Assembly (NCBI GenBank): GCA_977020255.1
Contig: CDROCS010002451.1
Span: forward strand, 558,001-622,000
DNA from: Obrimoposthia wandeli
Lineage: Eukaryota
Length of the DNA stretch: 64,000 bases
Reading direction: 5' to 3'
The notes below the pieces were generated by a model. That model saw only the letters and a list, made by a program, of their open reading frames with translations, was not told the origin of the DNA and searched no databases. The translations under genes were made by a program, and so were the position numbers. How positions within the stretch are numbered: position 1 is the stretch's first letter; each line of letters opens with the position of its first letter. Below are positions 1 through 50,074 of the stretch, in pieces.

Positions 1-1
1 T

Positions 2-226: not shown

Positions 227-257
227 ACGGAAGAAAGTACGCTGAAAAATAATAATA

Positions 258-633: not shown

Positions 634-669
634 ATATAAACAATTTCAAATAAAATAAATTGAACAAAA

Positions 670-1160
670 ATGTCTGTTTATTTTATCGATTTTGAAGCTT
701 TCATAGATTCAAATAAAGAATTCGTAATTAAAGAGCTATGTATTATGAATGTTGATAATATTTTGTTTCCTAAACATTATGTATTTAAAATGAAACCTAT
801 GTGGAACAAAATGGATTATTTTACAAACAGAATCAATAGATATTTAATCAAAAGATTTCATCATCTGAAACTAGTTGATGGTAATAGTTTCTTTAATCAA
901 ATTGAAATTAATCGATCAATTAAACGAGACTGTGATTTAGATAAATCTATTTTTTATGTTATTGATAAATATAATGGCTTTAAATTTCAAACCTTAAAGA
1001 AATACTTTCCTGAAATGAGAATTATAAATTATTCAAAAAGTTTAAAAGAAATTATTTAATCTAATATTAAATGTCCGTATATTGAACATGGGTCGCACTG
1101 TGCATATAAAAATGCTTTGCTGCATGTCTTGATTTCAAATTAACTATACTTAATAAATAA
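670..1160 (+). pseudogene. Conserved Polinton ORF with DEDD exonuclease-like N-terminus (IDFEAF) and Cys/His C-terminus; premature TAA at 1057 plus a frameshift near 1110
   Basis: Colinear with the intact element B copy (40543-41052). Sequence after the stop still encodes CPYIEHGSHCAYK. Confidence 0.75.
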
Positions 1161-1254
1161 TTATGTAATAAAAACCCATATTTTTATAAATACACACACA
1201 AAAGTATGCATATTTTAATTCTATACATGCTGACCTGTTGCGTCACATCATGCA

Positions 1255-1284
1255 TATAAAAGGATGCGATTGTATTTGTTCAGT
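1255..1284 (+). promoter_or_regulatory. Putative PolB core promoter: TATAAAA (1255) and Inr-like TCAGT (1280)
   Basis: Canonical ~27-nt TATA-to-Inr spacing, ~20 nt before the predicted ATG at 1301. A TGCGTCA bZIP-type site lies just upstream. Confidence 0.5.
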
Positions 1285-1300
1285 CTTTTACTTTTCAATT

Positions 1301-4300: not shown

Positions 4301-5364
4301 TACACAATAAATTTGATGACTTACCGCTTGCGCCAATTAAACAATGTCCACCTGGGAGTAAGATACCTAAATTATTATTAACACATTATCCTAAAAAACA
4401 TTATGTTGTTCATTCTAGATTGCTACAAATGTACGTTAGACTTGGTGCTAAGGTAGATTTTGTATATAGAGCAATACAGTTTGAACAAACTAATGTTTTT
4501 TCTAAATACATCGAGGATAACTCAGCAAAACGGGCTGCAGCTACAACAGATTTTGAGAAGGATTATTACAAACTGAAGGTAAATTCTTTATTTGGAAAAC
4601 TCATTGAGAATCTAATGAAAAGAATTAACCTTCGGATTTGTAATACTCCACAAAAGCTTGTTACCTATTGTAGTAAAGCGCACTTTCGTAGGACAATCGA
4701 AATCGATACAGACCATATCGCAGTTCTACTGAATAAGGAAAATATCGTTTTGGATCGTCCTAGTTATATAGGCCAGGCGGTTTTAGATTTAAGTAAACTT
4801 CGTATGTATGAGTTACAATATATGCAGTTGGAGAAATATCGAGTGCAATTTAACTGCGATATTAGAATTATAGCGGATGACACTGATAGTTTTTTCTTGA
4901 AGTGTAATAATGTAAATGTTCAAGAATCATTGTTACCTGCTATGATTGCTGATGGGCTGTTGGATACCTCGAAATTTCCAGAACATCATCCGCTTTATAC
5001 GACACGCAATACAGCGATAGGTAAATTTAAAGATGAGAGCAAGGGACTGTTTAGCTATAAGCAAGGAATATTTCTACGTCCAAAATCATATAGCTTAGAG
5101 ACTACAGAAGGAGAATCACAGATGAGAGCGAAGGGTATTAGTCTCCAACAAACTAACATACGACATGCTAATTACCTAGCAGTGTATGAGACTGGGATTA
5201 GTGGGCGAGTGCAACAACAACGCATAAGCTCGATAAATCACCAACTTTTTACAATTCATTTGAGTAAAATTGCACTGAGTAGTGCTGATGATAAACGTAA
5301 GTGGGTTGAGAAGAATCGATCGGTTGCCTACGGTCACTTTTTATACCCGGATGAAATTGTTTGA
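1301..5364 (+). pseudogene. Protein-primed family B DNA polymerase (pPolB), join(1301..1309,1345..3762,3902..5364), disrupted
   Basis: Motifs YADFE, FHNLMGYD, FIDSLQF, GIRGG, YIDVNNLYGWAM, KLKVNSLFGK, DTDS and RPKSY. Lesions by comparison with copy B: TAG 1438, -1 frameshift ~2507, TGA 2967, TAG 3612, and GDTDS changed to DDTDS. Confidence 0.93.
1588..1725 (+). repeat. Coding minisatellite (21-bp GTTCCTGTCACTGCTTCTCC(T/A)-type units encoding VPVTASP) in the PolB N-terminal linker
   Basis: About 5-6 imperfect in-frame units are visible; copy B has a different Ala/Pro/Val/Ser-rich linker at this position. Confidence 0.85.
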
Positions 5365-5839
5365 TCTTTTATTTTGTACATCGTTTTATTTATATTTCTT
5401 ACCCTATTCTTTGTGATTGTAAGTAATATATTTTGACATTAAATAATGTCTTGATTTTATTCTTATTTACAACTGTGTATTAACTACTATTTTCTTTAAA
5501 AATTATACTTAAAATAATATACATTAATTTTGATTTAACGAGTAATATATTTCTATGTAAAAGTTTATTTATAAAAATATTATTTTGAATGTTAAAATTT
5601 TCTTTCTAAAAAATTCAATGTAAATTATTATTCTAAAAATTTATAAGTTAAAACTTTCTTTATAAAAATGTTTAATTAAAAAAAAAAAAAATTTCTTTGT
5701 AAATTTTAATTGTTTTAAAAATAAAAATGTCGGAAAATTTTAAAAAATTCGCAAAAATTTAAAGATTAAAACAAAAATTAAAAATGTCGAAAATTTTGAA
5801 TATTAAAACAAAAAATCGAATAGTAAAACAAAATTTTGG

Positions 5840-11401: not shown

Positions 11402-14117
11402 CAGGGTTTCTCAACCTTTTTTCACCACGGCCCCCTTTAGTTTGCAGCAAATTGCTGTGGCCCCCCTCTACTATGGACAAAAAGATTACATCGTATACGT
11501 ATTGTTTTCAATTATACTATTCTGTCATGGAAACATTCAAAAAGATAATCAATGAGAAAACTATATTTAAAAAAAGTTAGTGTGACCCTTGCGCTTGGCG
11601 TTTGCCAACAAGTGTAGTGAAATCTGGAGCAATTTCAGAAAGTCGTAAACGGATTTCTGCATTGTCACACAACTTGAGATTCATCTGCTGTTTTGCGAAC
11701 GAATGAAGGACAACTGAGAACCCCTTCTCAGCTAACACCGACGTCGGTAGATTAACAATAAAGGGATAAACCTTCTTGAAAATTTCCGGATAAATTTCTG
11801 AATTTTCCAGCCATGCTGCCACCCAATTCTGCTTTGACATGCTGATCATTTTGTCATCTCCGAGAACTTGACATAACTCCATTTGAATGTTCTCAGGAAA
11901 ATCGATGATTTGATCGACTGTCATGACGTGAAGACAATCAATATATGCTGGAACAGTCAACACAATTAAATCCTCAAATCTTAGCTGAAAGTTTGTATAC
12001 AGGACTTCCAAGTGCACTAAAATGATGTCTCGCAAATCTGGATTGCAAACATCGTTGGCCAATTTTGGGAAATGACTGAAGTTACCAGCACGAATACTTG
12101 CTGCCCAAACGATCAATTTGTTCATAAATGATTTGATAATTCGCTTGGCATCAACAATATTGAAATTTTGTGACTGCATAACCATGTTAAGCTCGTTTAG
12201 TTTTTCCAAATATTGCCTCAGATATAAAATGGTGCTTTTTGCTTTCAATCAGTTTGTTTGTGAGATTAGCATCTCTTTCGCTCAAGAATTCAACAACTCT
12301 GTCAAAAAGAGCGACAAATCGCGACAGACAGTTTCCCATCGAGAGCCACCGTACCTCGGTATAGTAAAGCAAGCATTTAAAGTGCTCATCTTGACAAGCT
12401 TCACGAAAAAGGCGGTCTTGTAAAGCTCTTGACTTTATTTTGTTAATTGCTGAGACAACAATGTTAAGACAATCCATCAAAGTTGTTCTGCCCAAGTCTT
12501 TCGCGACCAAATTCTCACGGTGAAGTACACAGTGCATTGTAAAGATGGTCCTGTCTTGCAGAAAGCGACCGACAACACCTTGCTTTTTACCCACCATAGA
12601 TGGGGCACCATCAGTGCAAATGGATATCATGTTTCTCTTGTCTATACCATGATCCTCGAAGTACTTACAGACTGTGTTATACACAGATTCGCCTGTCGTG
12701 TTTACCACAGTTTTGATAAACAACAACTCTTCCTTGAGTTGTCTATCCTTGACGAAAAGGACAAATGCCAAAACAACCGCTTGGTTCGAAAATGTGCTTT
12801 CATCAAGCGTCAATGAGAATTGTGAATTGTGAAGATCATTTGTGATGATGAATTCCACATTTGCAGCCATATCAGAAATACGTCGCGATATGGTGTCATT
12901 TGAGAGAGGAATCGATACGAGCACTGACTGTGGATTTGATACTTTGGCAACATTAAATGCTTCCAAGATAGCAGGTTTAATTAACTGCTCTGCCAGTGTA
13001 TGCGCTCTACCCTGTTTCGCCATTAAATATGCAATTTTATATGATGCTGTTAAGCCAGAAGTAGAGTTCTGAGGAACCACAAATTTTCGAAATTGGGTTG
13101 AGGCTGTTTTCCTCTGATCACGAAGCTGAGTAAAATATGCGCGCGGTTTTGTTTCAATGTCAGGATGCTTATTTTGGAGATGAGCCTCAAGTTTTGATGG
13201 TCGCATTGAGTCATTGGAGAGCACAGTGTTACAGACAATACACTTAGGAAGTTGAGAATTACTTTGGCTTGCAATGAATCCGAAACGTAAATAATCACAA
13301 TTATACTGTCTGCACTTTTTCTTGCTGCTCATTGTTAACTAAAAATCAGAAATGAAAATTGTTTACAAGGGTAACGTGAGCAAAAAGACAAATAGAAAAA
13401 CAAGATCTGTATGTGTGTACATTCAGATATAGTGAATGACAAAGAAGAAGAAAGAAATCAACCACTGACTCATTCAAAACAAACACAAGTGCACGTTTGT
13501 GAGTTAGGTAGGTAGCATTTTACAATGGCAGCGTATTTTGGGCATGTACACATGAAGTGTGACACTCTTTTCTTCACACGCTGAGACACAACACGATTAC
13601 TGATTTTTATATGTAATGCTGTTGTCCCTAAACTGTACTGTACTCATACGAGTGCGCGCTTGATGTGATGATCAGCAAGAAATGAATGCGTCGTGACTTT
13701 TGCACAGGTTAAATTTATCATTAACATATCCGTATGATGCGCACATGTACAAATATACAAGACAGTCCATAGATTACTCAGGATGATGATTATGCACATG
13801 CCACATCCGCCACACAAACTTTTGTGGCGCGATGATATTTTTGCAAAGGCATATTATGATGTTTTACCGTCGGCCCTCATTGGGCTGGTACGCCCACGGA
13901 ATAAGTTGACGCGTCGCGTCCATATGTATCTAGAAGTCTATACTCTGTTTTCATTCCATGTCAAACATTTATTTGTGGCACACGTGTGCAGCCATCGAAG
14001 TGTTTAACCCAGTGAAAACAGGGGTGTTAATTTTTTATTTTTGTTTGGCTCGTGTGGCCCCCCTGGCAAAGTGTGTGGCCCCCCAGGGGGCCCCAGGGCC
14101 CCTGTTGAGAAACCCTG
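11402..14117 (-). mobile_element. hAT transposon, Buster/Charlie (ZBED5/SCAND3-like) family, 2.7 kb
   Basis: Perfect 14-bp TIR CAGGGTTTCTCAAC, 8-bp TSD GTCTAGTG on both sides, and a transposase ORF inside. Confidence 0.96.
11577..13332 (-). pseudogene. hAT Buster-type transposase (~585 aa) with one frameshift in an A-run near 12238
   Basis: BED finger CIVC...HLQNKH, LDES, TDGA, CVLH, EVRW and C-terminal PTSVLAEKGFS. The two ORF-track ORFs overlap at a single frameshift. Confidence 0.93.
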
Positions 14118-35441: not shown

Positions 35442-35833
35442 ATGTATATGAAGAATGATTGTCGTGAATGGAGTATACTGAAGATTAATGATATAGATGT
35501 GGAAATGCTGTGGGACTCCGGAGCATCAGTTACTGTAATGAGTAAGGATTGTTGGAAGAAAGTAGGATGTCACAAAATGAGACAGATTAATTTATATCTG
35601 AGTGGAGTTTTTTCGAATAATCATCAACAGCCCTTACGTAGGTTTAATACTAAAGTGTTATGGAATGGAAAGGAGAATGTTTTGGAAATAAAATTTGTAG
35701 AAGAAATTAAACCAGAATTTAATGGTGGAATCGATACAATGAAAACATTTGGGATAAAGCTGCAGGAAGTTTGTAATTTGAACTCGTATTGCATGATGAA
35801 AACGTTTTCCTCAAAAGAAAGAACAGATAAAAT
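35442..35833 (+). pseudogene. Gypsy-type retropepsin (aspartic protease) remnant, cut off by Polinton B sequence
   Basis: INDIDVEMLWDSGASVTVMS motif. After ~35834 the frame runs into Polinton terminal-repeat sequence. Confidence 0.85.
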
Positions 35834-36045
35834 ATTTATTCTTATACATGTATATATATGTGTGAGTGTCTAACAAAGACAGTCACCAATACCTACAAAG
35901 ACAGTCACGTACTGCATCAATATTGCAAAAACCTGCAAATTTATGTAAATACCAATAATTTTAAAATAAAGACAAGTATTTCAAACACATATATTCCTTA
36001 AAATCACAAAGGAGAATAAAAATATGTACAACACATATAAAAAGT

Positions 36046-37597
36046 TTATACAACCTCGTCCGGGTATAAAAAGTGACCATAGGCGACTGAACGGTTTTTC
36101 TCCACCCACTTGCGCTTATCATCACTACTACTTAAGGCAATTTTACTTAACCTTACAGTAAAAAGTTGATGATTTATATACGTTGTTGTTGTACACGCTC
36201 GCTAACGGCACTCTCATATACGGCTAAGTAATTAGAGTGCCTAATACTCGTCTGTCGGAGACTAATACCTTTCGCTCTCATCTGAGATTCACCTTCTGTA
36301 GTCTCTAGGCTATATGATTTTGGTCGTAGAAAAATCCCTTGCCTATAACTAAATAATCCTTTACTCTCATCTTTAAATTTTCCTATCGCTGTATTAAGCG
36401 TCGTATAAAGCGGATGGGTTTTTGGAAATTTCGAGGTATCCAACAGTCCATCAGCAATCATAGCAGGTAACAGTGATTCTTGAACATTGACATTATTACA
36501 CTTCAAGAAAAAGCTATCAGTGTCACCCGCTATAATTCTAATGTCGCAGTTAAATTGAACTCGATATTTCTCCAACTGCTCATATTGTAGCTCATACATA
36601 CGAAGTTTGCTTAAATCTAATACCGCCTGGCCCATGTAACTAGGACGATCCAAAACAATATTTTCCTTATCCAGTAAAACTGCAATAAGGTCCGTATCGA
36701 TTTCGATTGTCCTACGAAAGTGGGCTTTACTGCAATAGGTAACCAGCTTCTGTGGAGTATTACAAATCCGGAGGTTAATTCTTTTCATCAGATTCTCAAT
36801 GAGTTTTCCAAATAAAGAATTCACCTTCAGTTTATAATAATCCCTCTCGAAATCTGTTGTAGCCGCAGCTCTTTTGAGAGAATTATCCTCAATATATTTT
36901 GAAAAAACATTAGTTTGTTCAAACTGTAATGCTCTATATACAAAATCTACCTTAGCACCAAGTCTAACGTACATTTGTAGCAATCTAGAATGCACAACAT
37001 AATGTTTCTTAGGGTAATGTGTTAATAACAATTTTTCAGTCTTACACCCTGGTGGACGCTGTTTAATGGGAGCAAGGGGAAGATCGTCGAATTTATTATG
37101 AAGCTCGAAGGGAATGGATAAATCTATTTCCAATAAATGAGCGAAGCGACTACAGGATAAATTTGCTGATTTTAAGCTGGAAATAATATTCCCAACTCTA
37201 ACCGATCAGTCACCCAGGAAAAGTTACCACAAGGTAAAAACTTGGACATAGCCCACCCGTACAAATTATTTACATCAATGTACAAAAGTTCTGTACCATT
37301 GATGGCGTCAACGCGGTGTTCATTAACAAATGTCATACCCCCGCGAATCCCAGACCGGAAGAGTCGGTACATTTCTGGATCCTGTATTAGCTCGACTCGC
37401 ACAACGGGAGCAGAAGAAGAAGCCGGACGAAGCAGGGATTTGAAAGCACTCGTGAAAGTCAGTCCTGGAAATAAAAACATTTATTAAAATCATTGTGAAA
37501 ATCATTACTTTGAAAATCATATATCTAACAAAGACAGTCACGCATCTATATTGCAAATACTTGCATCTTTATGTAATCAATAGTAACATTTATTCTT

Positions 37598-37680
<83 letters not shown>

Positions 37681-37758
37681 AGTATCTAACAAAGACAGTC
37701 ACGCATCTATATTGCAAATACTTGCATCTTTATGTAATCAATAGTAACATTTATTCTT

Positions 37759-37794
<36 letters not shown>

Positions 37795-40411
37795 GTATCT
37801 AACAAAGACAGTCACGCATCTATATTGCAAATACTTGCATCTTTATGCAATCAATAGTAACAAGTACTACATTTATTCTTATACATGTATATATATATAT
37901 ATGTGTTAGTGTCTAAAATTAGAAAAAATTAGAAAAATACAAACCAGGGATGGAGAAGAAATTGAGAGGCTCCAATCCATCGTCAGCAATGGCCTTGGTC
38001 CGGAATGCTGTAAATACGTCTGCTAGAAGGTAGACGTCCATCTTCATATAGACCAGCATATAGTCCCAGAGCGATGAGCAGCCGCTCTGAGTCCAGACCA
38101 TCTTCGCCATTTTATATTGTGCTGGCTTGATCTTCTCATCCCACTTTGGCGGTAAGCTGGTGATTGCGCGAAGAGCAGTCTCTGATACTGCCATATCGTA
38201 TGGGAAGATTCCCTTGGCGCTCACCAGATGTTGCGGGAAGACCGAATGTGTAAGAGGAGTCACACCCAGGTTTTCCACAAGTTTTTCAAGTCCGCTGTTC
38301 AAAAATTGAAGGGAATCGATGAAACGTATACAGACTCCTCCAATATACACCATCATAGCCTGGAATTTCTCTGTTGATTGAGGTATAACAGATACATTCC
38401 AGTCAGGAAACTTGCATAGTGCGTGCTTCAATATATGGTGCATGTCATAACCCATAAGATTGTGAAAAATGACGGGAAAAGATCGATTGATTCTCCTTGA
38501 TAAGTTGCATTTCGTATGCGCTGCTCCCAGGTATTCGCCAGTCATGTGATCGTGATCTCGAACTTTGTTTGCGACTTTCTTCTTACACAGATAATAGATT
38601 CTTGCTGCATTGAAACTCAATACCTGTTCCTGTGTGAGTTGTCGCATCTCCTCGATCGCATGCTTCTTGTACCATGGGAGTACAACCTCTTTCGCCAAGT
38701 CCTCTAATTTCTTCAAAAAGGATAACACACAAGATTCTCCGGTAAAGACCGAGTTATCATGTGTATACCCTCTCGTGGCTGCAACGGGAGACATGAGCAT
38801 ACCGGCCGAGATTGGAAGCTGAATCTGATGGTGGATTCCATGCGGCGGTAGCACTGCCTCAAAGTCCGCGTAAACAGCAAAAGGCGGAGAAATCGTTTTT
38901 GAAAAGTCCTTAAACTCAATATGCTTCTCTGTAGGCATTGAATAAAGCGTTGTATGATCTAAATTCATCCTACAGTGTGGAACGTGTTTGGCGTAACTTA
39001 TTGGTCTCCGGAAGCCATGAAGACACTTATGGCACCAAGTACACTGGATGCGATTAGATACACCTCTGTTCCTATAATTAAGCAGCCTATTGAGTTTAGG
39101 AATACCGACATAATGAAAATTATCATTATTTTCTAAAAGGAGAAGATTGATTGGCTTAGCGTCCGGGTTTGTGGTTCTGTAAATGACATCCACATAGGGA
39201 TTTTTGAAGATATCCCCATCTGTTTGCACATTAGAGAACCTATTGAATGTAAATACGTTGATTGAGAGAGATGGATTCTTTCTCTCAAATCGCGGTATAT
39301 TACATAGACGCATCGGCATCTCATTCTCATCAAAAACTAATTGACTCAAAAAGGCATCATATTGATTAACCCGATGAGGATTAGAGCGAAATACTTTGCG
39401 GAAAAGTACAGATAAGATACTGTAAAGGAATCAAAAAGCGTTTGAGTTCTGCACATTGATAACGCAATGTGAGAGTGCTAACTCAGATGGAGTAGGTATA
39501 TAACTACTTCCCTGGAGATAGTTCATTGTCGTTGTTTTAGTCACAACAAACGAAATCTCCAGGAAGCGGTTCACTACCCAATTACTGCTACTTTGAGAAT
39601 AATTCTCAATCTTCTTGTTGATCCCATCTACTCCCGCATCTATAAACCCCTCATCTATGGGGAGCCCTCTATTGGAAAAATTCCAAGCGCGTATTTCTCC
39701 AATATTGGAAAATTCAACACGCACCCCGAATTGAACCTTGCAAGTCGCAAACTTGCTGACTGTGTCCCTTAAGCTAGTCAAAAGGGATACAGGAACTTGT
39801 AAATCGATGAGATTGTCATTAGAAACATCTAATGACAATGTCTCAATCGTGCCCCGAAGACTAGTATTACGCTTAACAGCATCAACCCTGGAAAACTTCG
39901 CAACAGAGCTACCTGAAGTGGACATAACACTTCTCTTGCGGGTAGATGCTGGTAACGGCGCGGGGATCATACCAACTGGAGGAGGCATAACTGGAACCAT
40001 TGATGCAACAGATGGTGGCGAAGCAACTGGACTAGTAACTGGAACAGCAGCAATTGGGGCAGATACTGGAACAGTAGTAGAAATTGGGGCAGCAATTGGC
40101 GAAGCAGCAACAACTGGACCAGCAACACGAGAAATAGTAGCAGATCTATTCTGAAAGATGGCCTTCTTGCCACGTTGCTGGAAATGACGAAGATGGACAC
40201 AATGACGCGCCACAAACTCCGACCAATCAATCTCCTCCGCGGAGAGACATACTGGACATACGTAGAATTGTTGTCCGTTGAACTTCTGTCCAAAGTAGCT
40301 CTTCATTTTTCCGTCACATTCCTTGTGACTCTCCTCGAAGCATAATTCTTTGTTCATATTGCAATTCTAGAAAGAAAGAAATTAGCAGAAAAATAACAAT
40401 AAACTTACCAT
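36046..40411 (-). pseudogene. pPolB, complement join(36046..37464,37945..40366,40409..40411), disrupted
   Basis: Same motifs as copy A, with intact GDTDS. Lesions: in-frame TGA at 39431-39433, -1 G near 37192, and a ~7-nt deletion near 36176. Confidence 0.95.
37524..37916. repeat. Three ~105-bp units plus variable (TA)n inside the PolB intron, homologous to the element's terminal region
   Basis: CTAACAAAGACAGTCACGCATCTATATTGCAAATACTTGCATC... starts at 37524, 37685 and 37798. It matches 35834-35915 directly and 49180-49277 inverted. Confidence 0.92.
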
Positions 40412-40542
40412 TTTCAATTTCGTTTATAATAGGGGATTATTTGTTGATTGATGCTTGCTTATATACTATTTTCGAGCTAGTATTAAGCCAATCAGATTCA
40501 TTCATTATTTAAACCAACCAGATTAATTTAAAACAGAATAGT

Positions 40543-41052
40543 TTACTGACAGATGTCAGTAGTTGAATTTTCATTAATATTTAAATAATCCAAACTAGCT
40601 GCAAAGCATTTCTTGTATGCACAATGCTCGCCATGTTTAATATATGGACAATTGATATTTGATGGATTTAATTGTTTTAATGTTTTCGAGTAATTTATCA
40701 CTCTAAATTCAGGAAAATATTTATTGATTGTCTTTATTTTAGCTCCATTATTTTCATCCAAAACATAGAAAATTGATTTGGATACATCACAACAACGTTT
40801 TATTTCCTCAGTTATTTCTTGTATCTTGAAATAACTATTATCATCAACTAGTTTTAGTCGATGGTAATGCTTAATGAGATATCTATTTATTTTTCTTGAT
40901 TTTCTATTCATCATGTCCCATATGGGTTGCATTTTAAAAACATAATGTTTAGGATAGAAGATTGCATCCACATCCATTATACATAGTTCTTTTATTACAA
41001 ATTCAGTATTATTATCAATAAAAGCTTCAAAATCAATAAAATAAACAGACAT
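40543..41052 (-). CDS. Conserved Polinton protein (169 aa) with DEDD exonuclease-like ExoI motif and C-terminal CxxxxHxxHC
   Basis: MSVYFIDFEAF...FVIKELCIM. Intact ORF, conserved in element A. Confidence 0.8.
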   Translation of the reverse strand: MSVYFIDFEAFIDNNTEFVIKELCIMDVDAIFYPKHYVFKMQPIWDMMNRKSRKINRYLIKHYHRLKLVDDNSYFKIQEITEEIKRCCDVSKSIFYVLDENNGAKIKTINKYFPEFRVINYSKTLKQLNPSNINCPYIKHGEHCAYKKCFAASLDYLNINENSTTDICQ

Positions 41053-41088
41053 TTTTATAGCAATAATTTTATTTGATATTGTTTATAT

Positions 41089-41466
41089 CTATTGTTTATG
41101 CTTTAACCAAAGCAGACAGAGTTGTCCACATGACTGCGTTAAAACATTTTGATAATGTTTCTTACTAAAATGTACTTTCTTTCCAGAGTCAAGTACTGTA
41201 GATACTAATTTAGAAGGGTAATATATCCCAAAGGGGTCAAAAACAAAGATTTCATTTTCTTTAACATGTATTGCAATCCAATGTTCACCACGCAAATTAG
41301 ATGAATGTGTATTGATTACATATCCACCTACTCGAGTCAAAGAGGGGATGTGGTCAAGGCTGTAGACTCCATTGAAACGCGAACCGAGTAGTTTTCTTCC
41401 GCTTTTTGTTATCTCGTCCGAACTAGAATATATATTAATTAATAAATTCAAACTGACTTACTTCAT
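41089..41466 (-). CDS. Adenain-like protease, complement join(41089..41422,41462..41466)
   Basis: ATGAA|GTAAGT, 39-nt intron, CTAG|TTCGGACGAG gives MNSDEIT.... GEHW, FDPFG, YQ and SCGQLC are present. Confidence 0.9.
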
Positions 41467-41497
41467 TTATATATCTTCTTTATTGTTTTCATTCTGT

Positions 41498-42726
41498 TTA
41501 TACTAGTACTGTTCCTCCCTTGGTAATTTGAACCTCAGAATCGAATACTCCATAGATTATAATATTAGTAGGGTGTTCAAGTGCTTTTGAAAACTTGATT
41601 TCTACTTTCAAATTTCCCTGTTTAGGGATTTGAGCTTGATTAATATCGAAATCAGGAGAGAGAAAAAATGTGAACAGTGTATACTTGTCCTTGAAATCAG
41701 TCATTGAAATTCCAATATTAGCATCCTTATCCAAATGACCAAGATTTCTAATTAAAGATTGCACATAAGAAAACACATAATCATCGTTTTCAAAGTCATT
41801 CGTATAAGATTCTTGATAATCAATATTTCGTGTAAGTTTAATTGAACTCACATTCATGTGTCCAAATTGAGAAACCTCATTTTTAGACTCACCTCCATAG
41901 GTAGACGTGTTTTGGAAAGCAATTAAAACAAAGTTTGGAAGTTGCATATCACCAAAAATCTGATCCTTGTAATAAGATAGTGCTCCCGTATCGATAGCGT
42001 GAGAAACAAGATTAGTTTTTCTAATAGGATAACATGCATTTTGCTTCTCCAACCCCATTCGATGTGCAACGAGTACAGATGGTTCCACCTTTACTCGTCG
42101 AACCAGCAGTTTTGCTTCCGTAATCTCAATTGCGGTTTTAATAGTATCAGCGCAAACAACACTAAAACCTACTGGATTTCTCTTCATTCGAATATGTGCA
42201 CTTACACCGGGTAAAAGATACTTTGGTTGCTTAAAGAAATCCAAATGGAGACTCCCACAAAGTGACAATACTTTAGACTTTGCAATCGAAGCAATTCTTC
42301 TTTTTTCATCATTGTCAAACCCAATTGCATCAAGATTAATCAATTTCGTATCATTACCGTAATTCAACAATGTTTCAATCATTGCTTTATGACTGTAACT
42401 AGTATTATTTCCCTCAACTTTCACATTATTGAGACTGAGAATCACATCCTTGAAAAGAGTATGCAACATGTAATTAGCTGATTTGATATCCATACCATCA
42501 TTCAAATCACCTCCACCTTCCTTTGTAACTTTCAATTTAACGAGAAATAAACTATCATTCAAATCAAGATATTGAGTATTGGATCCATTAATATTGAATT
42601 CTAAATCCGGAGAAGATGTCCTGTTAACCGTATTTGTCGGAAAATTTCTTCAAAACTAGCACTATCAACCACAACCTGAGGTATAGGTTTATCGAATATA
42701 CACAATTCAGTTTTAGCACAACTCAT
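41498..42726 (-). CDS. Major capsid protein (double jelly-roll, ~409 aa) with one -1 frameshift in a T-run near 42643
   Basis: Starts MSCAKTELCIFDKP..., typical of Polinton MCPs. Continues YLDLNDS, HTLFKDV, ETLLNY, GSLHLDFFKQPKYLLPGV after restoring one base. Confidence 0.92.
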
Positions 42727-43088
42727 TACTTAAAAATTGTTCCACCTAGTTTCAAACGTTTGTTTATACCCGATGCTTTAGATGTTTTCTTACGTTTATA
42801 ACCACTTCCCTTTTGAGTTTTCTTTTTCAAAAATTCAGCTAGACTTGGTGAAATTTCATTCACCTGATCCAAGGCTGCATCCTTTAGTGTAGGAAGAAAT
42901 TTCTCATCACTTGACAAGTATTTTGATCCAACATTAGCAATAAATTTCCCGAGTCGCTTGAGTAGTGGGAAAGCAAAGCGACCAAAAACCTTCATCCATC
43001 CTGATCCATACTGTTTTCCCGCAAAATAAGGCAAATCACCTCCTTGCATCGGTTTACTATACGCATCGATTATACTTGAATCAATCAT
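42726..43088 (-). CDS. Small basic protein with amphipathic helix (adenovirus pVI-like / membrane-active Polinton core protein)
   Basis: MQGGDLPYFAGKQYGSG followed by WMKVFGRFAFPLLKRLGKFIANVGSKYLSS. Located between penton and MCP. Function inferred. Confidence 0.75.
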   Translation of the reverse strand: MIDSSIIDAYSKPMQGGDLPYFAGKQYGSGWMKVFGRFAFPLLKRLGKFIANVGSKYLSSDEKFLPTLKDAALDQVNEISPSLAEFLKKKTQKGSGYKRKKTSKASGINKRLKLGGTIFK

Positions 43089-44107
43089 AATTTACGAAAA
43101 TGAACCGTTAAACTTGTTTTAGCTCCGTAAGCAAATGTAATTAATCTTCCAGAATCATTACGTATATTAACTTCAATATTGTTTATAGAAGAAGAACTCA
43201 CGGGAATATACATTGGATTTTCAATTGGAATATGTATAACATCACCATACTTGTGCTTTTCCTGTTGAACCCAAATTGCTTTAATTAAGGGAAGTTTCCT
43301 TCCTCCTACGAATATTGGTTCGGTAATACTCGTGTAGATATAAATCTGATTATATGCATTAGTCATTTTAGGAATAATCTTTGCTTTGAAAACCTCATTT
43401 TTATTTTCAATGTCATTTTCATCAAAACCGATAATTGAGGCTAATGATTTATCCATGATGATTTTATCAATATTGGATTTCAATTTGAAATGAATCAATT
43501 TATTAACTAGTTTAAAGTTTTCAAATACATTTGGTAACACTGTTTTAAAATGTTTACACATACTTTTGCTATCGGCAAAAAGAAAATCATTGGGAACTGA
43601 ATATATTTTCCTCTCGCGTTTAACGAATCTGTTTTTTATCTTGAATGTAATTATCGGATACTTGACATGATTATCCATAATTTGTGAAACTGCATGCTTA
43701 CCTTTTTCAACGTTAGGCGGAAATCCATATTGTTCTGCAACAATTTCATCATTAAAAACTATTTCAAAATTATCCCCTTTTCCAATAATTTGAATTCGAT
43801 TCTCTTTATTTAAATAGATTGTGAAATCATCGCCTGACTTAATACGAGCCAAATCCATTTGACCCTTATCAAATAGTAAAGTCACATCAGTTACTTTATC
43901 AGCTTCACGTTGAGTAATATATTCAATCTCAGTTTCACTTTGAATAGATAGAGGAGAGTAATTGAAAGAAAATTCCGTAAGAGCAGCTTCCCAAGCACCA
44001 GGTAAATTGATTGAGCTTTGATAATCAATACTAAAACTATTAGCAGTATTATTCGGTTGAGTTAATGGCGAACCATTACTTGGTAATACAACATACATTG
44101 AGTTCAT
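43085..44107 (-). CDS. Minor capsid protein (penton, single jelly-roll), ~340 aa
   Basis: YVVLPSN...NT.NSF...INLPGAWEAAL N-terminus and IYIYTSITEP...NPMYIPV...IEVNIRNDSG C-terminus. Start placed at the ATG overlapping the integrase stop. Confidence 0.9.
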   Translation of the reverse strand: MNSMYVVLPSNGSPLTQPNNTANSFSIDYQSSINLPGAWEAALTEFSFNYSPLSIQSETEIEYITQREADKVTDVTLLFDKGQMDLARIKSGDDFTIYLNKENRIQIIGKGDNFEIVFNDEIVAEQYGFPPNVEKGKHAVSQIMDNHVKYPIITFKIKNRFVKRERKIYSVPNDFLFADSKSMCKHFKTVLPNVFENFKLVNKLIHFKLKSNIDKIIMDKSLASIIGFDENDIENKNEVFKAKIIPKMTNAYNQIYIYTSITEPIFVGGRKLPLIKAIWVQQEKHKYGDVIHIPIENPMYIPVSSSSINNIEVNIRNDSGRLITFAYGAKTSLTVHFRKL

Positions 44108-45119
44108 TCTATTTGAGAAGCTAATATCCAACTAGGTTCAGTATATCCATGCCACTTAACATGATATTGTTTATGCTTTCCTCTACCTTTTGTCTCTAAA
44201 ATTTCTTGGATTCTATATACATTTGGTTTCTCAGGCAAGACTTGTAATTCCTCATGATAAAATTTACCCGTGATTACATTATTGGTTTCATCCTCAATGA
44301 AATACATTACCGGCATACGTTTATTATCAATTTTAGTTATACGAAATACTTCATCGCTCCAATTCTCTTTGAAATTCTTTATAAAAGGAGTAGTACTAAT
44401 TTGAGAAATACGTACATAATCACCAACTTTATACTTGGGTATCCGCGCAACTTGACTTTGGTTACGGCGTTGCCAAATTTCCATAGCATTCTCATCTGTA
44501 ACATCAACGGGTCTCTTTCGGTCTAATGATGAGTGTTCACTATGATTGTATGCATGTATTATTTGAGGTAAAACAGTAACCCAGGACTTATTTCCCTGCT
44601 TTTCAAACAATCTCTCAATGTTCGATTAAAACGTTCAACTAAAGCGGCTTTATATTGGGAAAATACTGAGTAATGATTAATATTATGTTTTTTCAATAGT
44701 GTTTCAACATGTTTATTATAAAACTCCTTTCCACTATCCGTTTGGAAATTTCTTGGTTTTATTTCTTTAATCAAAAGCTTCATTGCGGTTAAAACATCGA
44801 TACCAGACTTAGACTTTAATGGAATAGCTCGCGCGAATCTGCTAAAGACATCAACACAAGTTAAAATATATCGATATCCGTCGTTAATACTCGCATACGG
44901 AATCATTTCCATCAAATCTGCTTGCCATAAATCATTCGGGCCGCTCGTTTTGTATGATCTCGTTGGGAACCGACGTCTCATTGGTTTGTTTAAGCTGTAA
45001 GCTAATTGATTTCTCAACCACGCCTGAGTTTCCTGCTTTGTCTTCTTTGACTCTTTTGCTAATTTTGAAACCCCTGTGTAACCAACGGGGTGACTTGGAT
45101 CGAACCATATTTTCTCCAT
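44104..45119 (-). pseudogene. Retroviral-like (rve) integrase with C-terminal chromodomain; frameshifted by a short deletion near 44611
   Basis: WFDPSHPVGY, WQADL, FQTDSGKEF and VERFNRTL (D-D-E triad), then the chromodomain-like YRIQEILE...YHVKWHGY...SW. Confidence 0.93.
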
Positions 45120-45216
45120 TGCAGCAAGACGATTTGATTTTTAAATTGAATTTAGGAATAGATGGAAGTGATCCCATACATAAATTCATATTATTGATTC
45201 GAATTTATGTTTATAA

Positions 45217-45636
45217 TCATCGGTTTATTAGTCTACTAGCAAGTGCACCAACTATTGAGCTAATAATTGGTACGCGAAATCCTAAAAATCCACCACTTTG
45301 TTTATAAAGCAACTTACGTTTACCGATTCGTGTTTTGGCATGAAACAAAGCAAGTAGAGGTTTCTTATGCCGATTCAGGTTAGCCTTGACAATTATTTTA
45401 CCAGAAACTATTTTCTGTATCATATTAAGTAAATCATCAATTACAAAAGTAGGGAATGATTTAAGAATAGCTGGGCGGCGAATAGCAGGTGCACGCATGA
45501 GAGAATTGAAATAGGCAATACTCCTAGATTTCTTAACAGTTCTTTTCGATTTTTGAGCAACCATTTTCCTTGCACTTAAAACTGATTTGATCAATTTTTT
45601 AACTTCGGGTTTAACAGTTTCCTTTTTAAAATTCAT
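45217..45636 (-). CDS. Conserved basic Polinton protein (139 aa) ending in KQSGGF plus a hydrophobic helix
   Basis: Lys/Arg-rich, and resembles the widespread Maverick ORF that ends QxGGFL...; located between ATPase and integrase. Confidence 0.75.
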   Translation of the reverse strand: MNFKKETVKPEVKKLIKSVLSARKMVAQKSKRTVKKSRSIAYFNSLMRAPAIRRPAILKSFPTFVIDDLLNMIQKIVSGKIIVKANLNRHKKPLLALFHAKTRIGKRKLLYKQSGGFLGFRVPIISSIVGALASRLINR

Positions 45637-46283
45637 CTTCTCAAAACTGGTTTCTTTGTTTGTTTATAGACGGTTATTCCCGATGGATTGAATACATCAG
45701 TTCTAACTCTAAAGTCATCGGGACAATCTTGAGTAAAATCAATAAAAATGTATCCATGAGGAATAGTAGTTGCATCTTGAAATGAATCAATTAAAAACTT
45801 TCTATTATTCGGGTAAGCTTGTCTTGAAACAAAATCAACAACCGTCTGATCACGTGGATTCTTGAAGAGAACAAGGTAATATACATTTAAATTACGAGTT
45901 CTATGGTTCCCTCCTTGATGAAATAGATTTTGTGTGATGAAAATAACAGTTACTTCCCGATGTCGTGCTATTTTAGTGAATAAATTATTGAAATCACTCT
46001 CTTTATTTGCTTCTTGATATAAATCATCAATAACAATAACATCATGTCGTTGTAATCGCTCAGACCAATTATCATCGAATCCATTAATGACTTTTATATT
46101 TTTGATTTTCTTAAACTCTTTACTGGTTAAATCAGCTTCTCCATCTCCTCCCTGATGCCAGTATATTTTATTAAACTTAAAACTAAAGTATTTATTATTT
46201 TGCAGTAATTTACATACAAAATGTGTTTTCCCACTACCACTAGGACCTACAATCTGAAAAACTGAATTATTTTTTAAGTTCAT
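45633..46283 (-). CDS. A32/FtsK-HerA-like DNA packaging ATPase (216 aa)
   Basis: Walker A GPSGSGKT, Walker B VIVIDDL, ARH...IFITQNLF and RxxxLN. Intact. Confidence 0.95.
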   Translation of the reverse strand: MNLKNNSVFQIVGPSGSGKTHFVCKLLQNNKYFSFKFNKIYWHQGGDGEADLTSKEFKKIKNIKVINGFDDNWSERLQRHDVIVIDDLYQEANKESDFNNLFTKIARHREVTVIFITQNLFHQGGNHRTRNLNVYYLVLFKNPRDQTVVDFVSRQAYPNNRKFLIDSFQDATTIPHGYIFIDFTQDCPDDFRVRTDVFNPSGITVYKQTKKPVLRR

Positions 46284-46330
46284 ATTAAAAATATTAGATT
46301 ATCGGGATAATGTTTATAAGACAAAACTAT

Positions 46331-46609
46331 TTAAAATATTTTATTACGAAACATCCAGCAACAAACAATAAAAAAACTCTTCTCGTAGAAAAAGCTCCTT
46401 TTCTCTTCTTTGTTTGCGAGTTTCTTCTGATTGTATCCCTGAATGAGAAGATTGACTGCCTTGTCGTGCACCATTCTTCTTACGTGCTCCTCCAGGGGTA
46501 GATTTGAGACATCAATGAGTTGCAGGACATCTGGTTCTATGACATTCTTCGAGATGACGCTCTTCACCGCCTTGTCAACATCTTGCTTGAAATAGTTTGG
46601 AGTAGACAT
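46331..46609 (-). CDS. Accessory ORF, 92 aa (MSTPNYFKQD...), unknown, hydrophobic C-terminus
   Basis: ATG at 46609 with a TATA-like TATATAAG upstream. No recognisable domain. Confidence 0.5.
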   Translation of the reverse strand: MSTPNYFKQDVDKAVKSVISKNVIEPDVLQLIDVSNLPLEEHVRRMVHDKAVNLLIQGYNQKKLANKEEKRSFFYEKSFFIVCCWMFRNKIF

Positions 46610-46679
46610 AATGATGATGAAGAAGTAAAAAGTAATCTGCTTATATACTATACATCTGAAATCTGATTGGTTAATAAAT

Positions 46680-46790
46680 ACACTGACTAATAAAGACACT
46701 AAAGACACTGACTAATAAAGACACTGACTAATAAAGACACTGACTAATAAAGACACTGATTAATAAAAACACTGATTAAAGATAAAGACG
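46680..46790. repeat. 16-bp tandem repeat CACTGACTAATAAAGA (about 6 units) between the phosphatase-like gene and the next ORF
   Basis: Directly visible. Confidence 0.9.
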
Positions 46791-46798
46791 AATAAAAT

Positions 46799-47581
46799 TT
46801 ACACATGATAACGATTAAAAATACGTATTTGATGAAGCATAGCTTCATTAGGAGCAGCAATAGTCCGTTTAGCTTTAACAAGATTCGAAGCAGCAGTAAC
46901 ACCAATCGAATGAGATAAAAATGCAATAACAATGCAAGCAGCATGTAAACTACCATAATGACCACATACTAAAATCTTACCACCATTTTCGATAGTTTCT
47001 TTAATTATATTATTAGTCTGTTTATAATACTTCATTATTGTTTCTCCTAATTTTGAGTTTACAAAGACAGAAGTATATTTTAATTTCTTATAATATATTT
47101 TATCCAGTATAGATGTATTGATTACATGAGTGAAATTGGAGTTCAAAAGATTAGTTTCATCAAACCCATCTCGATAATTACCAATATATAATTGATTTAC
47201 TAAAATCTCACTCATCGCTGTTTTGTTTAACTTTTCTACATTATGTTGAGTAAATCTAGCACTAAACAAACTATCAAAAAGATGGGTCATGTGGTTCATT
47301 TCCATACTCAAAGCATGAGCTATTATGGGTTCCATAAAAGCCAAAGCATTTAAAAAATCTATCCGTCTCTTATCTTCAATAATTGGATCTATAATAATTT
47401 CTTCTTCTATCGTCACTTCATCAATAGTTTCTTCTCTTCTTATAACTATTGTTGTTGTTGCTGGTGGTGGTGATGTTACTGATGATGTTGCTGGCAATGA
47501 TGTTGTTGACGATGATATTGCTGGTAGTGATGATGTTGTTGGCGATGATGTTGCTTCTGGTGCTGAATTGATTTTCTCCAT
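46799..47581 (-). CDS. Dual-specificity phosphatase-fold protein with a dead active site (STYX-like pseudophosphatase) and Ser/Thr/Pro-rich then acidic N-terminus
   Basis: SEILVNQLYIGN, FTHVINTS, GGKILVCGHYGSLHAACIVIAFL and VKAKR...PNEAMLHQI align to DUSP hallmarks. HCxxGxSRS is replaced by CGHYGSLHA. Confidence 0.85.
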   Translation of the reverse strand: MEKINSAPEATSSPTTSSLPAISSSTTSLPATSSVTSPPPATTTIVIRREETIDEVTIEEEIIIDPIIEDKRRIDFLNALAFMEPIIAHALSMEMNHMTHLFDSLFSARFTQHNVEKLNKTAMSEILVNQLYIGNYRDGFDETNLLNSNFTHVINTSILDKIYYKKLKYTSVFVNSKLGETIMKYYKQTNNIIKETIENGGKILVCGHYGSLHAACIVIAFLSHSIGVTAASNLVKAKRTIAAPNEAMLHQIRIFNRYHV

Positions 47582-47614
47582 TTTATCAATTCCGAGTCAA
47601 TTTAGTCTTATATA

Positions 47615-47858
47615 TTAAACAAGGTTTGATTTCATTGGAGCATCAGTTTCATCATATGATTTGATTGGAGTATTATTCAACCTTTCCATTGTACTTAACA
47701 TCTCATGTAAATGTAGTTGATGACGTAACCTAAAGAGTTAAATAAACTACATATAAATATTACTCATGATTATTTTTCCTAATTAAAGCATTGAGAATAA
47801 CTGAAGCAAGATCTTTTAATGCATCCTGAACCTCTTTACATTCAATAATTTCATCCAT
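47615..47858 (-). CDS. Predicted spliced accessory ORF, complement join(47615..47729,47764..47858), 69 aa, helical
   Basis: GA|GTAATA, 34-nt intron, TTTAACTCTTTAG|G joins two otherwise separate short frames (MDEIIECKEV...NNHE-LRHQLHL...SNLV). Confidence 0.45.
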
Positions 47859-48019
47859 TTTATGATAAAGCAAATCAAATATTGTTTATAACCTATGAAA
47901 AATCTATTTTTAGACCACAACTATTTGCAACATTACAACGTTTGCAACTATTTGCAAGTAATGACATGTGATGTCTTTGTCTTAGTATAAACAATATTTT
48001 GATAATGATTTTATTGAAA

Positions 48020-48220
48020 ATGGATAATCAAAATAATCAAAATAATGAAAGTAGAGCTAGTACATACATAGGTTCCGATAGTAATTTATATTCTAATATG
48101 AATTATAATAGAAATAATCAGAGAGAAAATATTAATCCATCAAGTCAAACAATAACAAGTCCTACGCGCGTAACCGAAGAACGTGAGCCCTTTAAGGATA
48201 TGACTAATACTAGACGATAA
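48020..48220 (+). CDS. Asn-rich accessory ORF (66 aa), unknown
   Basis: ORF only; low complexity. Confidence 0.3.
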   Translation: MDNQNNQNNESRASTYIGSDSNLYSNMNYNRNNQRENINPSSQTITSPTRVTEEREPFKDMTNTRR

Positions 48221-48333
48221 ACAAGAATGTTAACCAATTGAGACTAATCGATTTTCATAAACAAGAATATCGACCAATTAGAATCGAGCTTTAGAGGATA
48301 AACAATTGAATATTTCAATTTATAATTGTCAAT

Positions 48334-48723
48334 ATGAATTTAGAAAAGCTATATCAACCTATGCATACATATTATGGATATGAGATGCACTTTTTGAAGA
48401 AAGCTCATAACTATAATTTTATTTTTCCCGTCAACATCGAGTCGCTTAAATTTGATTTTGAAATATCAAATTTGACTTCTGTGGATAAAGAGAGAATCAA
48501 TATTATCTTGACTCAATTCGGAATCAACTATGCGCTTCAGGAAAACAAATTCGTAATCAAAGGATCAACTGCCACTTTCAAGCATGAGAATGGAACAATA
48601 TACGAAGCACCTCCTCCTAAGCTAGAATGGATTATCTCAATCAGAATTCAAGGATGCAAGATCGGGCCCAGTGGATTGGAAACTCCGATATGGAAAATAA
48701 TTGATGCTGTTAGAGTTGACTAA
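48334..48723 (+). CDS. Accessory ORF (129 aa), globular, beta-rich, unknown
   Basis: Intact ORF with protein-like composition inside the element. No motif firmly recognised. Confidence 0.6.
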   Translation: MNLEKLYQPMHTYYGYEMHFLKKAHNYNFIFPVNIESLKFDFEISNLTSVDKERINIILTQFGINYALQENKFVIKGSTATFKHENGTIYEAPPPKLEWIISIRIQGCKIGPSGLETPIWKIIDAVRVD

Positions 48724-48790
48724 TAAATTGTTGTGTCTTTATTTGTATTATTTTATATATATAAACAATAGTGATACTTTAATATTTATT

Positions 48791-49156
48791 ATGAAAATGA
48801 CTAAAAAACCTACTAAATCATTAAAGACTAAGGTTAAAAAGACTATGAGTAAAAAGACTATGAGTAAAAAGAAAATCATTGAGGGTTTGGGTATTCATAT
48901 GATGGCAGCAAATCTTTTAGGTAGATGGTTTGGTGGAGTTGATAAAAAAGCTATAAAGCACAAAAAGAATGTGGATTATTTGAGAGGTATACAAAATCAG
49001 AAACGAGTGCAAAAAGGAGATGGTATACAAAAAGGGGATGGTATGCTTGATATTTTTGTAAAATTAGATAAACTTACAAAAGCATTTGAAAAGAATCCTA
49101 GTGCCTATCTTGGTCCAAAACTAAACTTTTTAGCAAACCAACCAAAAACTTTGTAA
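48791..49156 (+). CDS. Lys-rich accessory protein (121 aa) with two amphipathic segments and two QKGDG motifs
   Basis: ATG at 48791 in the 48701-49156 frame. Basic N-terminus, GLGIHMMAANLLGRWFGG, QKGDGIQKGDGMLDIFVKL. Confidence 0.65.
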   Translation: MKMTKKPTKSLKTKVKKTMSKKTMSKKKIIEGLGIHMMAANLLGRWFGGVDKKAIKHKKNVDYLRGIQNQKRVQKGDGIQKGDGMLDIFVKLDKLTKAFEKNPSAYLGPKLNFLANQPKTL

Positions 49157-49164
49157 TTACATTG

Positions 49165-50074
49165 CAGTACGTCTTTGTTAGACACTCACACATATATACA
49201 TCTATAAGAATAAATGTAGTACTTGTTACATTAAGATGCAAGTATTTGCAATATAGATGCGTGACTGTCTTTGTTAAATATAGGAACGTTTAAACATTAT
49301 TATCAAATTATATAATACTTTATTTTATAAGTAGATAGTTTAATTTAATTTAAATAAATTTATCAAATTATATAATACTTTATTTTATAAGTAGATAATT
49401 TAAATAAATTATAAAACACACACACGATATGTATTTTGTTGAATTGGTGTTAATACAGTCTTTAGATAAAAAGATATATAGATTTAAAGTATGTTACTAA
49501 AAATAGAATCTTTTTGACCTCACCATGACCTTAAGTTGTCCTCATAACGTCATGACCTTAACTTGACCTTAACTTGCCTTGACCTCATGAGGTCATGACC
49601 TACATCTTGTCCTCATCGTGACCTTAAGTTGTCCTCATGAATTTTAATAAAAAATCATGTGTACTCGGGAGAAATTTGACCTACATCTGTCATAAAAAAT
49701 TTGAGTTCAAAAATTTTCGCGCTAATTTCAAAAATTTCATGGAAATTTCAAACATTTTCAAAAATTTTCGCGCAAATTTCAAAATAATGACCTTCAGAAA
49801 TCGACTGAAAACACCCTAAATCAACCAAAATTTGAATACGCGCCAATCAAATTTGATGTATTTAAACAAAAATTTATTTAAATAGATGTACTATAGTACA
49901 TAATGACCTTCAAATGACCTTGACCTTAAAATATCACGTGTACTCGGGAGAAATTTGACCTTGACCTTGACTTACATCCGTCATTGACACTAATTTTTTT
50001 TTAATTTAAAAAAAAATTGAGTTTTCGCTAGGGGGACCTTTTTCCTTGAGTCGAAGTAATCACTTCTCACTACT
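49165..50074. repeat. Right terminal (inverted) repeat region of Polinton B, with internal duplications and about a dozen TGACCT motifs
   Basis: Inner part matches the left-end remnant in inverted orientation; ends in ACTACT. The extent is inferred because the left TIR is mostly missing. Confidence 0.7.

Follow-up and report, generated by a model that had tools for sequence, protein, structure and literature searches.

A degenerate dual-specificity phosphatase of Obrimoposthia wandeli Polintons is constrained between subfamilies and probably shares mobile ancestry with a retroelement phosphatase

Results

A Polinton copy carries a phosphatase-like gene

We analysed a stretch of 64,000 nucleotides (the window: assembly GCA_977020255.1, contig CDROCS010002451.1, positions 558,001 to 622,000, forward strand) from the 1.35-Gb, AT-rich genome of Obrimoposthia wandeli; its features are collected in Table 1. 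A sequence-only reading had proposed that a 260-aa frame encodes a Polinton-borne, STYX-like pseudophosphatase. The frame is indeed present, on the minus strand, and the surrounding element is a Polinton in which DNA polymerase B (PolB), an integrase with chromodomain and an A32-type ATPase were all matched by Pfam. We call the gene the pseudo-DUSP.

Table 1. Features of the window (plain positions) and of other loci used for comparison (positions within the locus whose L number is given)
Feature	Position	Strand	Evidence or remark
Whole Polinton copy, ~14 kb	35830..50074	-	left end truncated, limit approximate
Protein-primed DNA polymerase B, in pieces here	36174..40357	-	DNA_pol_B_2
Presumed minor capsid, small ORF, presumed major capsid	41498..44107	-	ORFs; position and known motifs
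Integrase with chromodomain, split over two ORFs here	44104..45119	-	rve 51.8 bits, weak Chromo
Packaging ATPase, downstream neighbour of pseudo-DUSP	45633..46283	-	Pox_A32 26.9 bits
Pseudo-DUSP gene, subfamily A, 260 aa	46799..47581	-	ORF, Pfam DSPc, near-identical genome matches
DSP-fold domain, residues 123-258	46808..47215	-	Pfam, AlphaFold2, Foldseek; 123-210 strongly constrained, 211-258 weakly
Degenerate P-loop CGHYGSLH, residues 206-213	46943..46966	-	alignment register and tallies over copies
N175, general-acid Asp position (K in subfamily B)	47057..47059	-	alignment
Helical module, residues 70-122, in A, B and D	47216..47374	-	predicted dimer interface
S/T/P-rich arm, about residues 6-45, subfamily A only	47447..47566	-	alignment; pLDDT <50
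TATATAA box, 33 nt before the pseudo-DUSP ATG	47608..47614	-	19/20 A copies
Terminal inverted repeat, cargo side, ending in the 5'-AGTAGT terminus	49150..50074	.	inner limit approximate
Single-repeat TBP-like genes, examples	L094:7711-8061; L091:8310-8651; L051:4177-4518
Burro-like retroelement, very many copies	L083:3-9998, L084:2-1138 (C399); L021-L050
IAP alignment pair	Polinton L097:6611-7612; retroelement L083:3750-4950

The integrase is a single frame of 335-342 aa in other Polinton copies. The genes that we take to encode the capsid proteins, assigned from their position and from known motifs, had no Pfam match at cut-off, and a single-sequence capsid fold model was uninformative (pLDDT 31). 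Among the ORFs of the window none matched an adenain-type cysteine protease in Pfam. The window copy is also without a 1.6-kb block, comprising an inhibitor of apoptosis (IAP) gene and a mini-TBP gene, that fuller copies carry between ~47900 and 48000; a step in read depth agrees with the outline of the copy, the four read runs from one sample covering the non-repeated flanks as DNA would, with depth no measure of copy number. The gene order in fuller copies is IAP (BIR-RING, 333 aa), single-repeat TBP, pseudo-DUSP, ATPase. Inverted ends together with a 6-bp target duplication were present in two of the three fuller copies inspected: those on contigs C435 and C777 have inverted ends starting with AGT and the duplications ACAACC and AACGGC, and the copy on C220 has long repeats with no clear duplication at the ends read.

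These features agree with those of described Polintons, Mavericks and adintoviruses, which have in common PolB, an integrase with chromodomain, an ATPase, inverted repeats starting with AGT, a 6-bp duplication and a length of ~15 kb. The element departs from them in that phosphatases are not among the cargo described in the papers searched and in that no protease gene was recognised here. The sequence-only reading was not aware of such cargo as a standard part of Polintons, and no phosphatase of a Polinton or adintovirus was found in the literature searched: the word occurs 0 times in the main text of PMC8502044, on adintoviruses, and of PMC6431247, and for the terms looked up phosphatases go unmentioned in the parts of PMC13238120, PMC11410931 and PMC8532177 concerned.

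Several further observations concern the architecture of the copies. The window, C435 and C777 copies do not share the same Polinton termini. In the C220 copy (L085-L087) the cargo, ATPase and integrase are 95-96% identical to those of the window copy, PolB is only ~70% identical and the terminal repeats are different and 1.3 kb long, a mosaic pointing to module exchange between Polinton subfamilies. Between pseudo-DUSP and ATPase lies a 92-aa ORF (46331-46609, minus strand) with its own TATATAA box and no Pfam match; subfamily B has only 97 bp in its place. Directly after the subfamily A stop codon follows a short tandem repeat (46690-46780, a unit of ~19 bp repeated five times). PolB is interrupted by a TA microsatellite block (37500-37920) that contains copies of the inner terminal-repeat motif, and elsewhere in the window there are hAT-like transposase fragments (11577-13332, minus strand; weak zf-C2H2_12 and DUF659 matches).

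The encoded protein has a DSP fold and has lost its catalytic residues

The earlier proposal of a full DUSP-like domain and of three catalytic replacements was upheld by profile search, structure prediction and alignment. The Pfam DSPc profile (PF00782; cut-off 33.5 bits) matched residues 131-256 at 48.1 bits, the alignment spanning positions 1-131 of its 133, and 37 PDB sequences matched the protein, those of DUSP19, DUSP10 and DUSP22 ranking highest. AlphaFold2 modelled residues 121-260 with block-mean pLDDT of 88-98, preceded by a long helix at 66-106 and by 50 disordered residues at the start. Foldseek matched this model to DUSP22 (E 6e-12, rmsd 2.3 Å), SSH2, MKP5 and STYX at rmsd of ~2.1-2.3 Å; eight ordinary DSPs were part of the AlphaFold2 alignment, so that the fold match depends on the sequence match. 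Of the low-complexity, S/T/P-rich arm that had been described as part of the protein, subfamily A has it and B and D do not.

A gap-free alignment to DUSP19 and other DSPs placed the P-loop His opposite C206, the catalytic Cys opposite G207 and the Arg opposite H213. A shifted register with C206 as nucleophile was rejected, since no gap occurs in the alignment on either side and the position of the conserved Gly is unchanged. N175 aligns with the general-acid Asp and is Asn in 27/27 A copies. Neither the HCx5R motif nor the general-acid Asp that characterise an active DUSP is found in the protein. PTP chemistry requires the Cys nucleophile, the P-loop Arg that holds the phosphate and the Asp; as all three are gone, phosphatase catalysis by the pseudo-DUSP is, judged from its sequence, very unlikely. 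The FNFL-type docking segment of MAP kinase phosphatases (MKPs) reads EAML in A, DIMC in B and TTLL in D, and Pfam had no match to a rhodanese-type kinase-binding domain at E up to 1, the model having long helices instead.

The pseudo-DUSP occurs in three Polinton subfamilies

A protein search of the genome with the A sequence gave 147 listed matches at 93-100% identity, 135 of them without an internal stop; they were the top scorers out of 15,625 candidates, which biases them towards intact copies. Two further subfamilies have at least 40 copies each. Subfamily B (215 aa, 60% identical to A) carries the motif CGHYGIDL, and one of its genes, a frameshifted pseudo-DUSP orthologue, lies just upstream of the window, in a ~80% identical second Polinton copy of opposite orientation (window 1-5470 and L051:4100-10000). 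Subfamily D (216 aa) carries CGHYGGLH, sometimes CSHYGGLH, Ser replacing Gly at the catalytic Cys position in 5 of the 17 D copies read. Catalytic Cys and Arg were absent from 94/94 copies read at the motif (20 copies plus 30 of B, 27 of A from 28 loci and 17 of D from 25 loci). The Arg position is occupied by His in A and D and by Leu in 30/30 B copies, and the general-acid position by Asn or Lys across subfamilies.

The gene sits between mini-TBP and ATPase in all three subfamilies. Among TBP-anchored loci it was present in 2/20; 13 others had a flanking ATPase 57-81% identical and no DUSP match. Distant Polinton families (ATPase 60-77% identical) have TBP and often IAP with no DUSP match nearby, and the same holds for distant families anchored on IAP. 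The pseudo-DUSP is therefore the mark of one Polinton clade. Many Polinton families of the genome encode a TBP-like protein of 113-116 aa with a single repeat (47-49 bits against Pfam TBP), and several encode an IAP. The A and B pseudo-DUSP, IAP and TBP genes each have TATATAA at a distance of 28-36 nt upstream, and the ATPase and presumed capsid genes have TATAAAC; the D pseudo-DUSP likewise has TATAAAC.

The domain is constrained between subfamilies

For the domain of A versus B, dN was 0.23 and dS 0.94, giving a dN/dS of 0.24 (bootstrap 95% interval 0.13-0.39), and the three subfamily pairs all fell at 0.23-0.26 with intervals below 0.45, at dS of 0.45-1.0; these ratios and those below come from Nei-Gojobori counting rather than from codon-model fits. 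Changes seen in one copy alone were neutral (pN/pS 1.07, 1.22 and 1.09). In a McDonald-Kreitman-type comparison of the A and B domains, fixed nonsynonymous and synonymous changes numbered 61/47 against 123/31 private ones (Fisher p 0.0001); B copies by themselves gave p 0.16, and significance was reached once 27 A copies were added. Frames were intact in 7/27 A copies selected at the DNA level and in 16/30 B copies, counts in which some frameshifts may be assembly errors. The dead domain is under purifying selection between subfamilies, and single copies decay neutrally.

The suggestion that the domain has been kept despite catalytic loss is thus supported at the level of subfamilies. The intact frame of the window copy, which had been read as a sign of selection, is no evidence of it: PolB and integrase are split in the same copy and private changes are neutral. 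A dN/dS comparison across copies, proposed at that stage as one of the checks, divides in the same way, with neutral private changes and many broken frames among copies and constraint between subfamilies.

Constraint is uneven along the protein. Residues 123-210 gave dN/dS of 0.12-0.16 in all three pairs, compared with 0.11-0.16 for core genes, and residues 211-258 gave 0.50-0.57 with intervals that include 1. In the alignment of A, B and D the conserved parts are the sheet side, an invariant YIGNYRDGFDET stretch and CGHYG, which changes little or not at all from one subfamily to another; the next three positions, following the conserved Gly, vary among the subfamilies.

A helical module is predicted to mediate dimerisation

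Residues 70-122 form a helical module that had no Atlas match at 0.9 or above and in which 22/53 positions are invariant across A, B and D. Its dN/dS was 0.20-0.65, the interval including 1 for A versus B. A two-copy model of the D protein scored 0.34 against 0.00 for the best control and passed marginally a mark of 0.32 (runs of 0.35, 0.09 and 0.34, with 87% or more of contacts shared between runs and a pLDDT of 76 or higher). That mark was passed by 21/30 solved pairs and 0/23 single chains in a microbial calibration and by 17/29 pairs and 0/30 single chains in a eukaryotic one, in which only 1/7 pairs without an older solved relative passed. The interface lies wholly inside the new helical module, and 9 of its 15 core contacts are invariant; interface positions were invariant at 14/28 compared with 8/25 for the rest of the module, a difference that is not significant (p 0.27). 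Dimerisation is thus predicted, from the models, to run through the helices of residues 70-113.

A Burro-like retroelement of the same genome carries related DUSP and IAP genes

A genome-wide DSPc search also uncovered 150 copies of a different mobile DUSP, which has an intact HCQKGISRS motif and lies in frames of up to 4,633 aa. These frames encode an env-like fusion protein, two proteases, BIR-RING, reverse transcriptase (RT), RNase H, integrase and two tandem DSP domains. The domain order is that of Burro, a giant Gypsy-like element of planarians, as given in section 7 of PMC6431247: a single long frame in which env comes before protease, BIR-RING, RT, RNase H and integrase. No phosphatase appears there among the Burro domains, and the motif-intact and degenerate DUSPs set the present element apart from the description. 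The motif-intact, MKP-related DUSP follows the integrase, directly succeeded by the degenerate DUSP and then by a hydrophobic segment. An older, decayed family with a motif-intact DUSP (HCYKGISRS; L283:8544-8954, L281:7951-8361) is 53% identical to the young one. A candidate Polinton with an active DUSP, suggested by the HCYKGISRS pattern, was rejected: in its two best-preserved regions the pattern belongs to this older retroelement family, as flanking polyprotein matches on C526 and C897 indicate, with five other regions being too decayed or too mixed with Polinton fragments to assign.

The retroelement DUSPs keep an LNFL/FNFL docking segment, and their best host match is an MKP-like gene on C934 (110 bits, 45% identity). 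The Polinton and retroelement IAPs align end to end, linker included, at 32% over 382 columns (E 2e-50), and score 151-175 bits against each other compared with 69.5 bits for cIAP1, also far above two host BIR exons; no host BIR-RING IAP was found within what is an incomplete host IAP set.

The sequence-only reading had looked to a host DUSP as donor, but the best candidate is the retroelement-borne DUSP. A profile built from A, B and D scored 81.7-88.3 bits against seven of eight retroelement copies, the decayed eighth reaching at most 68.7; the other 281 sequences reached at most 68.1 and the best of nine host DUSPs, an incomplete set found by motif, only 48.4. The three old-family copies scored 88.3 and 68.7, with one outside the best 14. 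The degenerate second retroelement DUSP was rejected as a source (4.3 bits). Among 1.84 billion library proteins the best match to A scored 64.6 bits at 36% identity, compared with 63.0 bits for the retroelement DUSP, and with B as the query the retroelement DUSP outranked the 150 best library matches. Of the top 150 library matches 138 carry an intact HCx5R motif, the Atlas held only generic DUSP19-like clusters at 0.92, viral and metagenome contigs contained no specific relative, and the exact A sequence was absent from a 15-billion collection. Word-index searches gave 0/720 candidates with A and 0/730 with the IAP, the tool being insensitive here.

Trees were built from chosen subsets (45, 33, 15 and 15) of 270 library rows, with the degenerate second retroelement domain left out. 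In three of them the Polinton and retroelement DUSPs grouped together with a metagenomic DSP, P0043 (support 86/83, 82/88 and 89/83, none of them starred), and in the fourth the Polinton and retroelement DUSPs were not joined. A Polinton-retroelement clade was not rejected (p 0.49 and 0.48), and neither was placement with the best library hits (AU p 0.094) or with host MKP (p 0.096). The Polinton stem is long, at 1.4 changes per column, and in the tree that includes the old family the Polinton rows form a sister group of the retroelement rows rather than a lineage inside them. A host DUSP grouped with Macrostomum (100/99), which, like the presence of a Burro-like retroelement, suggests a flatworm host; in a planarian-like flatworm, knock-down would be feasible. 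The trees favour a link between Polinton and retroelement DUSPs and fall short of proof; we consider a common mobile ancestry of the two likely.

Discussion

With STYX and MK-STYX the pseudo-DUSP has in common the DSP fold, the Gly that STYX too has in place of the catalytic Cys, and a predicted role in non-catalytic binding. It differs from STYX in having lost the Arg and Asp as well, in being a mobile-element gene and in its predicted extra helical dimer module; STYX deviates from active enzymes at one position only, according to a passage of PMC10211241. A STYX-type library row (P0127, so called from its HGNAGLSRS motif) was not joined to the pseudo-DUSP in four trees, with borderline AU p values of 0.032 and 0.10. 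The term STYX-like therefore describes the Cys-to-Gly replacement well, but not the accompanying loss of Arg and Asp. A pattern search for a host STYX gave five matches at one mismatch, and the two translated were non-DSPs.

Inactive PTPs of bracoviruses, such as CvBV_22-9, and baculovirus PTP2 resemble the pseudo-DUSP as virus-borne phosphatase homologues with replaced catalytic residues. Bracovirus PTPs differ in being classical PTPs rather than DSPs, in acting in the parasitised host and in being pro-apoptotic, and no sequence link from the pseudo-DUSP to them or to PTP2 was found in the protein library or in a further search. The MKPs DUSP10/MKP5 and DUSP16/MKP7 and the host MKP-like genes on C934 and C2967 have the fold in common with the pseudo-DUSP, which differs from them in lacking the catalytic residues, the FNFL segment and a kinase-binding domain.

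On balance we lean towards the view that the pseudo-DUSP is a selected, non-catalytic, homodimeric binder of a host protein that acts independently of phosphate, and that its gene derives from an MKP-type DUSP related to that of the retroelement. An ancestor of A, B and D would have picked up an MKP-related DUSP from a Burro-like retroelement, after which the enzyme would have turned into a binder. This direction of transfer is suggested, on grounds of parsimony, by the narrow distribution among Polintons, the two divergent retroelement families and the intact motif there. The two-headed homodimeric module would bind its host protein without need for phosphate, and binding would likely hold the host cell in a state that permits replication of the element. 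The gene may be expressed early, together with the IAP, as the TATATAA box common to the A and B gene, IAP and TBP suggests. Going by the MKP-related ancestry and the adjacent IAP gene, our best guess is that the partner could be a protein of a stress or apoptosis pathway; the putative role in host signalling is likewise drawn from neighbours and ancestry. How such a protein could act may be modelled on CvBV_22-9, which binds Rad9A without altering its phosphorylation (in the part of PMC12912956 that deals with this interaction).

Two roles offered by the sequence-only reading, a phospho-substrate trap and a MAPK-signalling decoy of the canonical kind, become unlikely because the phosphate-holding Arg and FNFL are gone. 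By FNFL the catalytic domains of MKPs dock JNK, and MKP7 needs it to act on JNK1, as set out in the relevant portion of PMC4802042; in the pseudo-DUSP the segment is lost in all three subfamilies, within the weakly constrained half of the domain, and a kinase-binding domain is missing. These same losses weigh against a decoy that would bind JNK, p38 or ERK through another surface and thereby shield or sequester the kinase. The nearest relatives are MKP-related and keep LNFL/FNFL, the IAP neighbour suggests stress signalling, and STYX binds ERK2 in competition with DUSP4 (again within the part of PMC10211241 cited); we regard such a decoy as unlikely, yet the best placed of the competing explanations.

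The protein might instead serve the element itself, as a part of the virion or of the replication complex or as a partner of its own TBP, ATPase or IAP. Its place between TBP and ATPase in all three subfamilies would fit, as would the TATAAAC box, of the ATPase and capsid type, in D. Poxvirus VH1 and a baculovirus PTP are, moreover, virion-associated. Related Polinton families have TBP and ATPase without the gene beside them, however, which makes it dispensable for the core cycle, and A and B share their box with IAP and TBP. This explanation seems a shade less probable than the decoy.

A phospho-substrate trap, holding a phosphorylated residue in the dead pocket, is improbable. The near-invariance of CGHYG shows that the first half of the pocket is constrained, and phosphate could be contacted by the His that A and D have in place of the Arg; against this, the Arg position is free to vary, being Leu in every B copy read, the residues after the conserved Gly vary between subfamilies, and the site-shaping Asp-Ser-Asn network (PMC7589817) is not kept. 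We give very little credence to a pocket repurposed for other chemistry or metal binding through C206 and H208: C206, H208 and Y209 are kept across subfamilies and rare in 150 library DSPs (1%, 16% and 4%), but a third ligand at 213 is not conserved, and the library DSP P0085, whose catalytic Cys and Arg are intact, likewise has a Cys in place of the His. Least credible of all is a functionless passenger relic, since the broken state of most older copies and the private pN/pS of 1.07-1.22 reflect a decay that follows insertion and also hits the ATPase, and between subfamilies the frame survived with dN/dS of 0.23-0.26.

Gene exchange between the two element classes is probable. In the wider scenario, which we put forward tentatively and with slightly less than even confidence, the Polinton and the env-bearing LTR retroelement would have swapped host-control genes at least twice (IAP and MKP-related DUSP); the Polinton would have converted its DUSP into a dimeric, phosphate-independent decoy by means of a new helical module, the retroelement would independently keep a tandem of active and dead DUSPs, and both would target stress and apoptosis circuitry. 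The IAP transfer may have run in the opposite direction, IAP being widespread among Polinton families.

Pseudophosphatases borne by viruses are known from large insect viruses; we found none reported for Polintons and, in the literature on LTR retrotransposons, no dual-specificity phosphatase, Burro-type elements included. Should the link hold, class I and class II elements would have exchanged cargo within one host, the genes concerned being those of apoptosis and stress. The genome also holds a series from enzyme to pseudoenzyme, in the form of a host MKP, two retroelement families with an intact motif and three dead Polinton subfamilies. In Schmidtea, Polintons are silenced by piRNAs and de-repressed on differentiation, as stated in a part of PMC8532177. 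The pseudo-DUSP offers a test of whether Polintons manipulate the host cell as viruses do.
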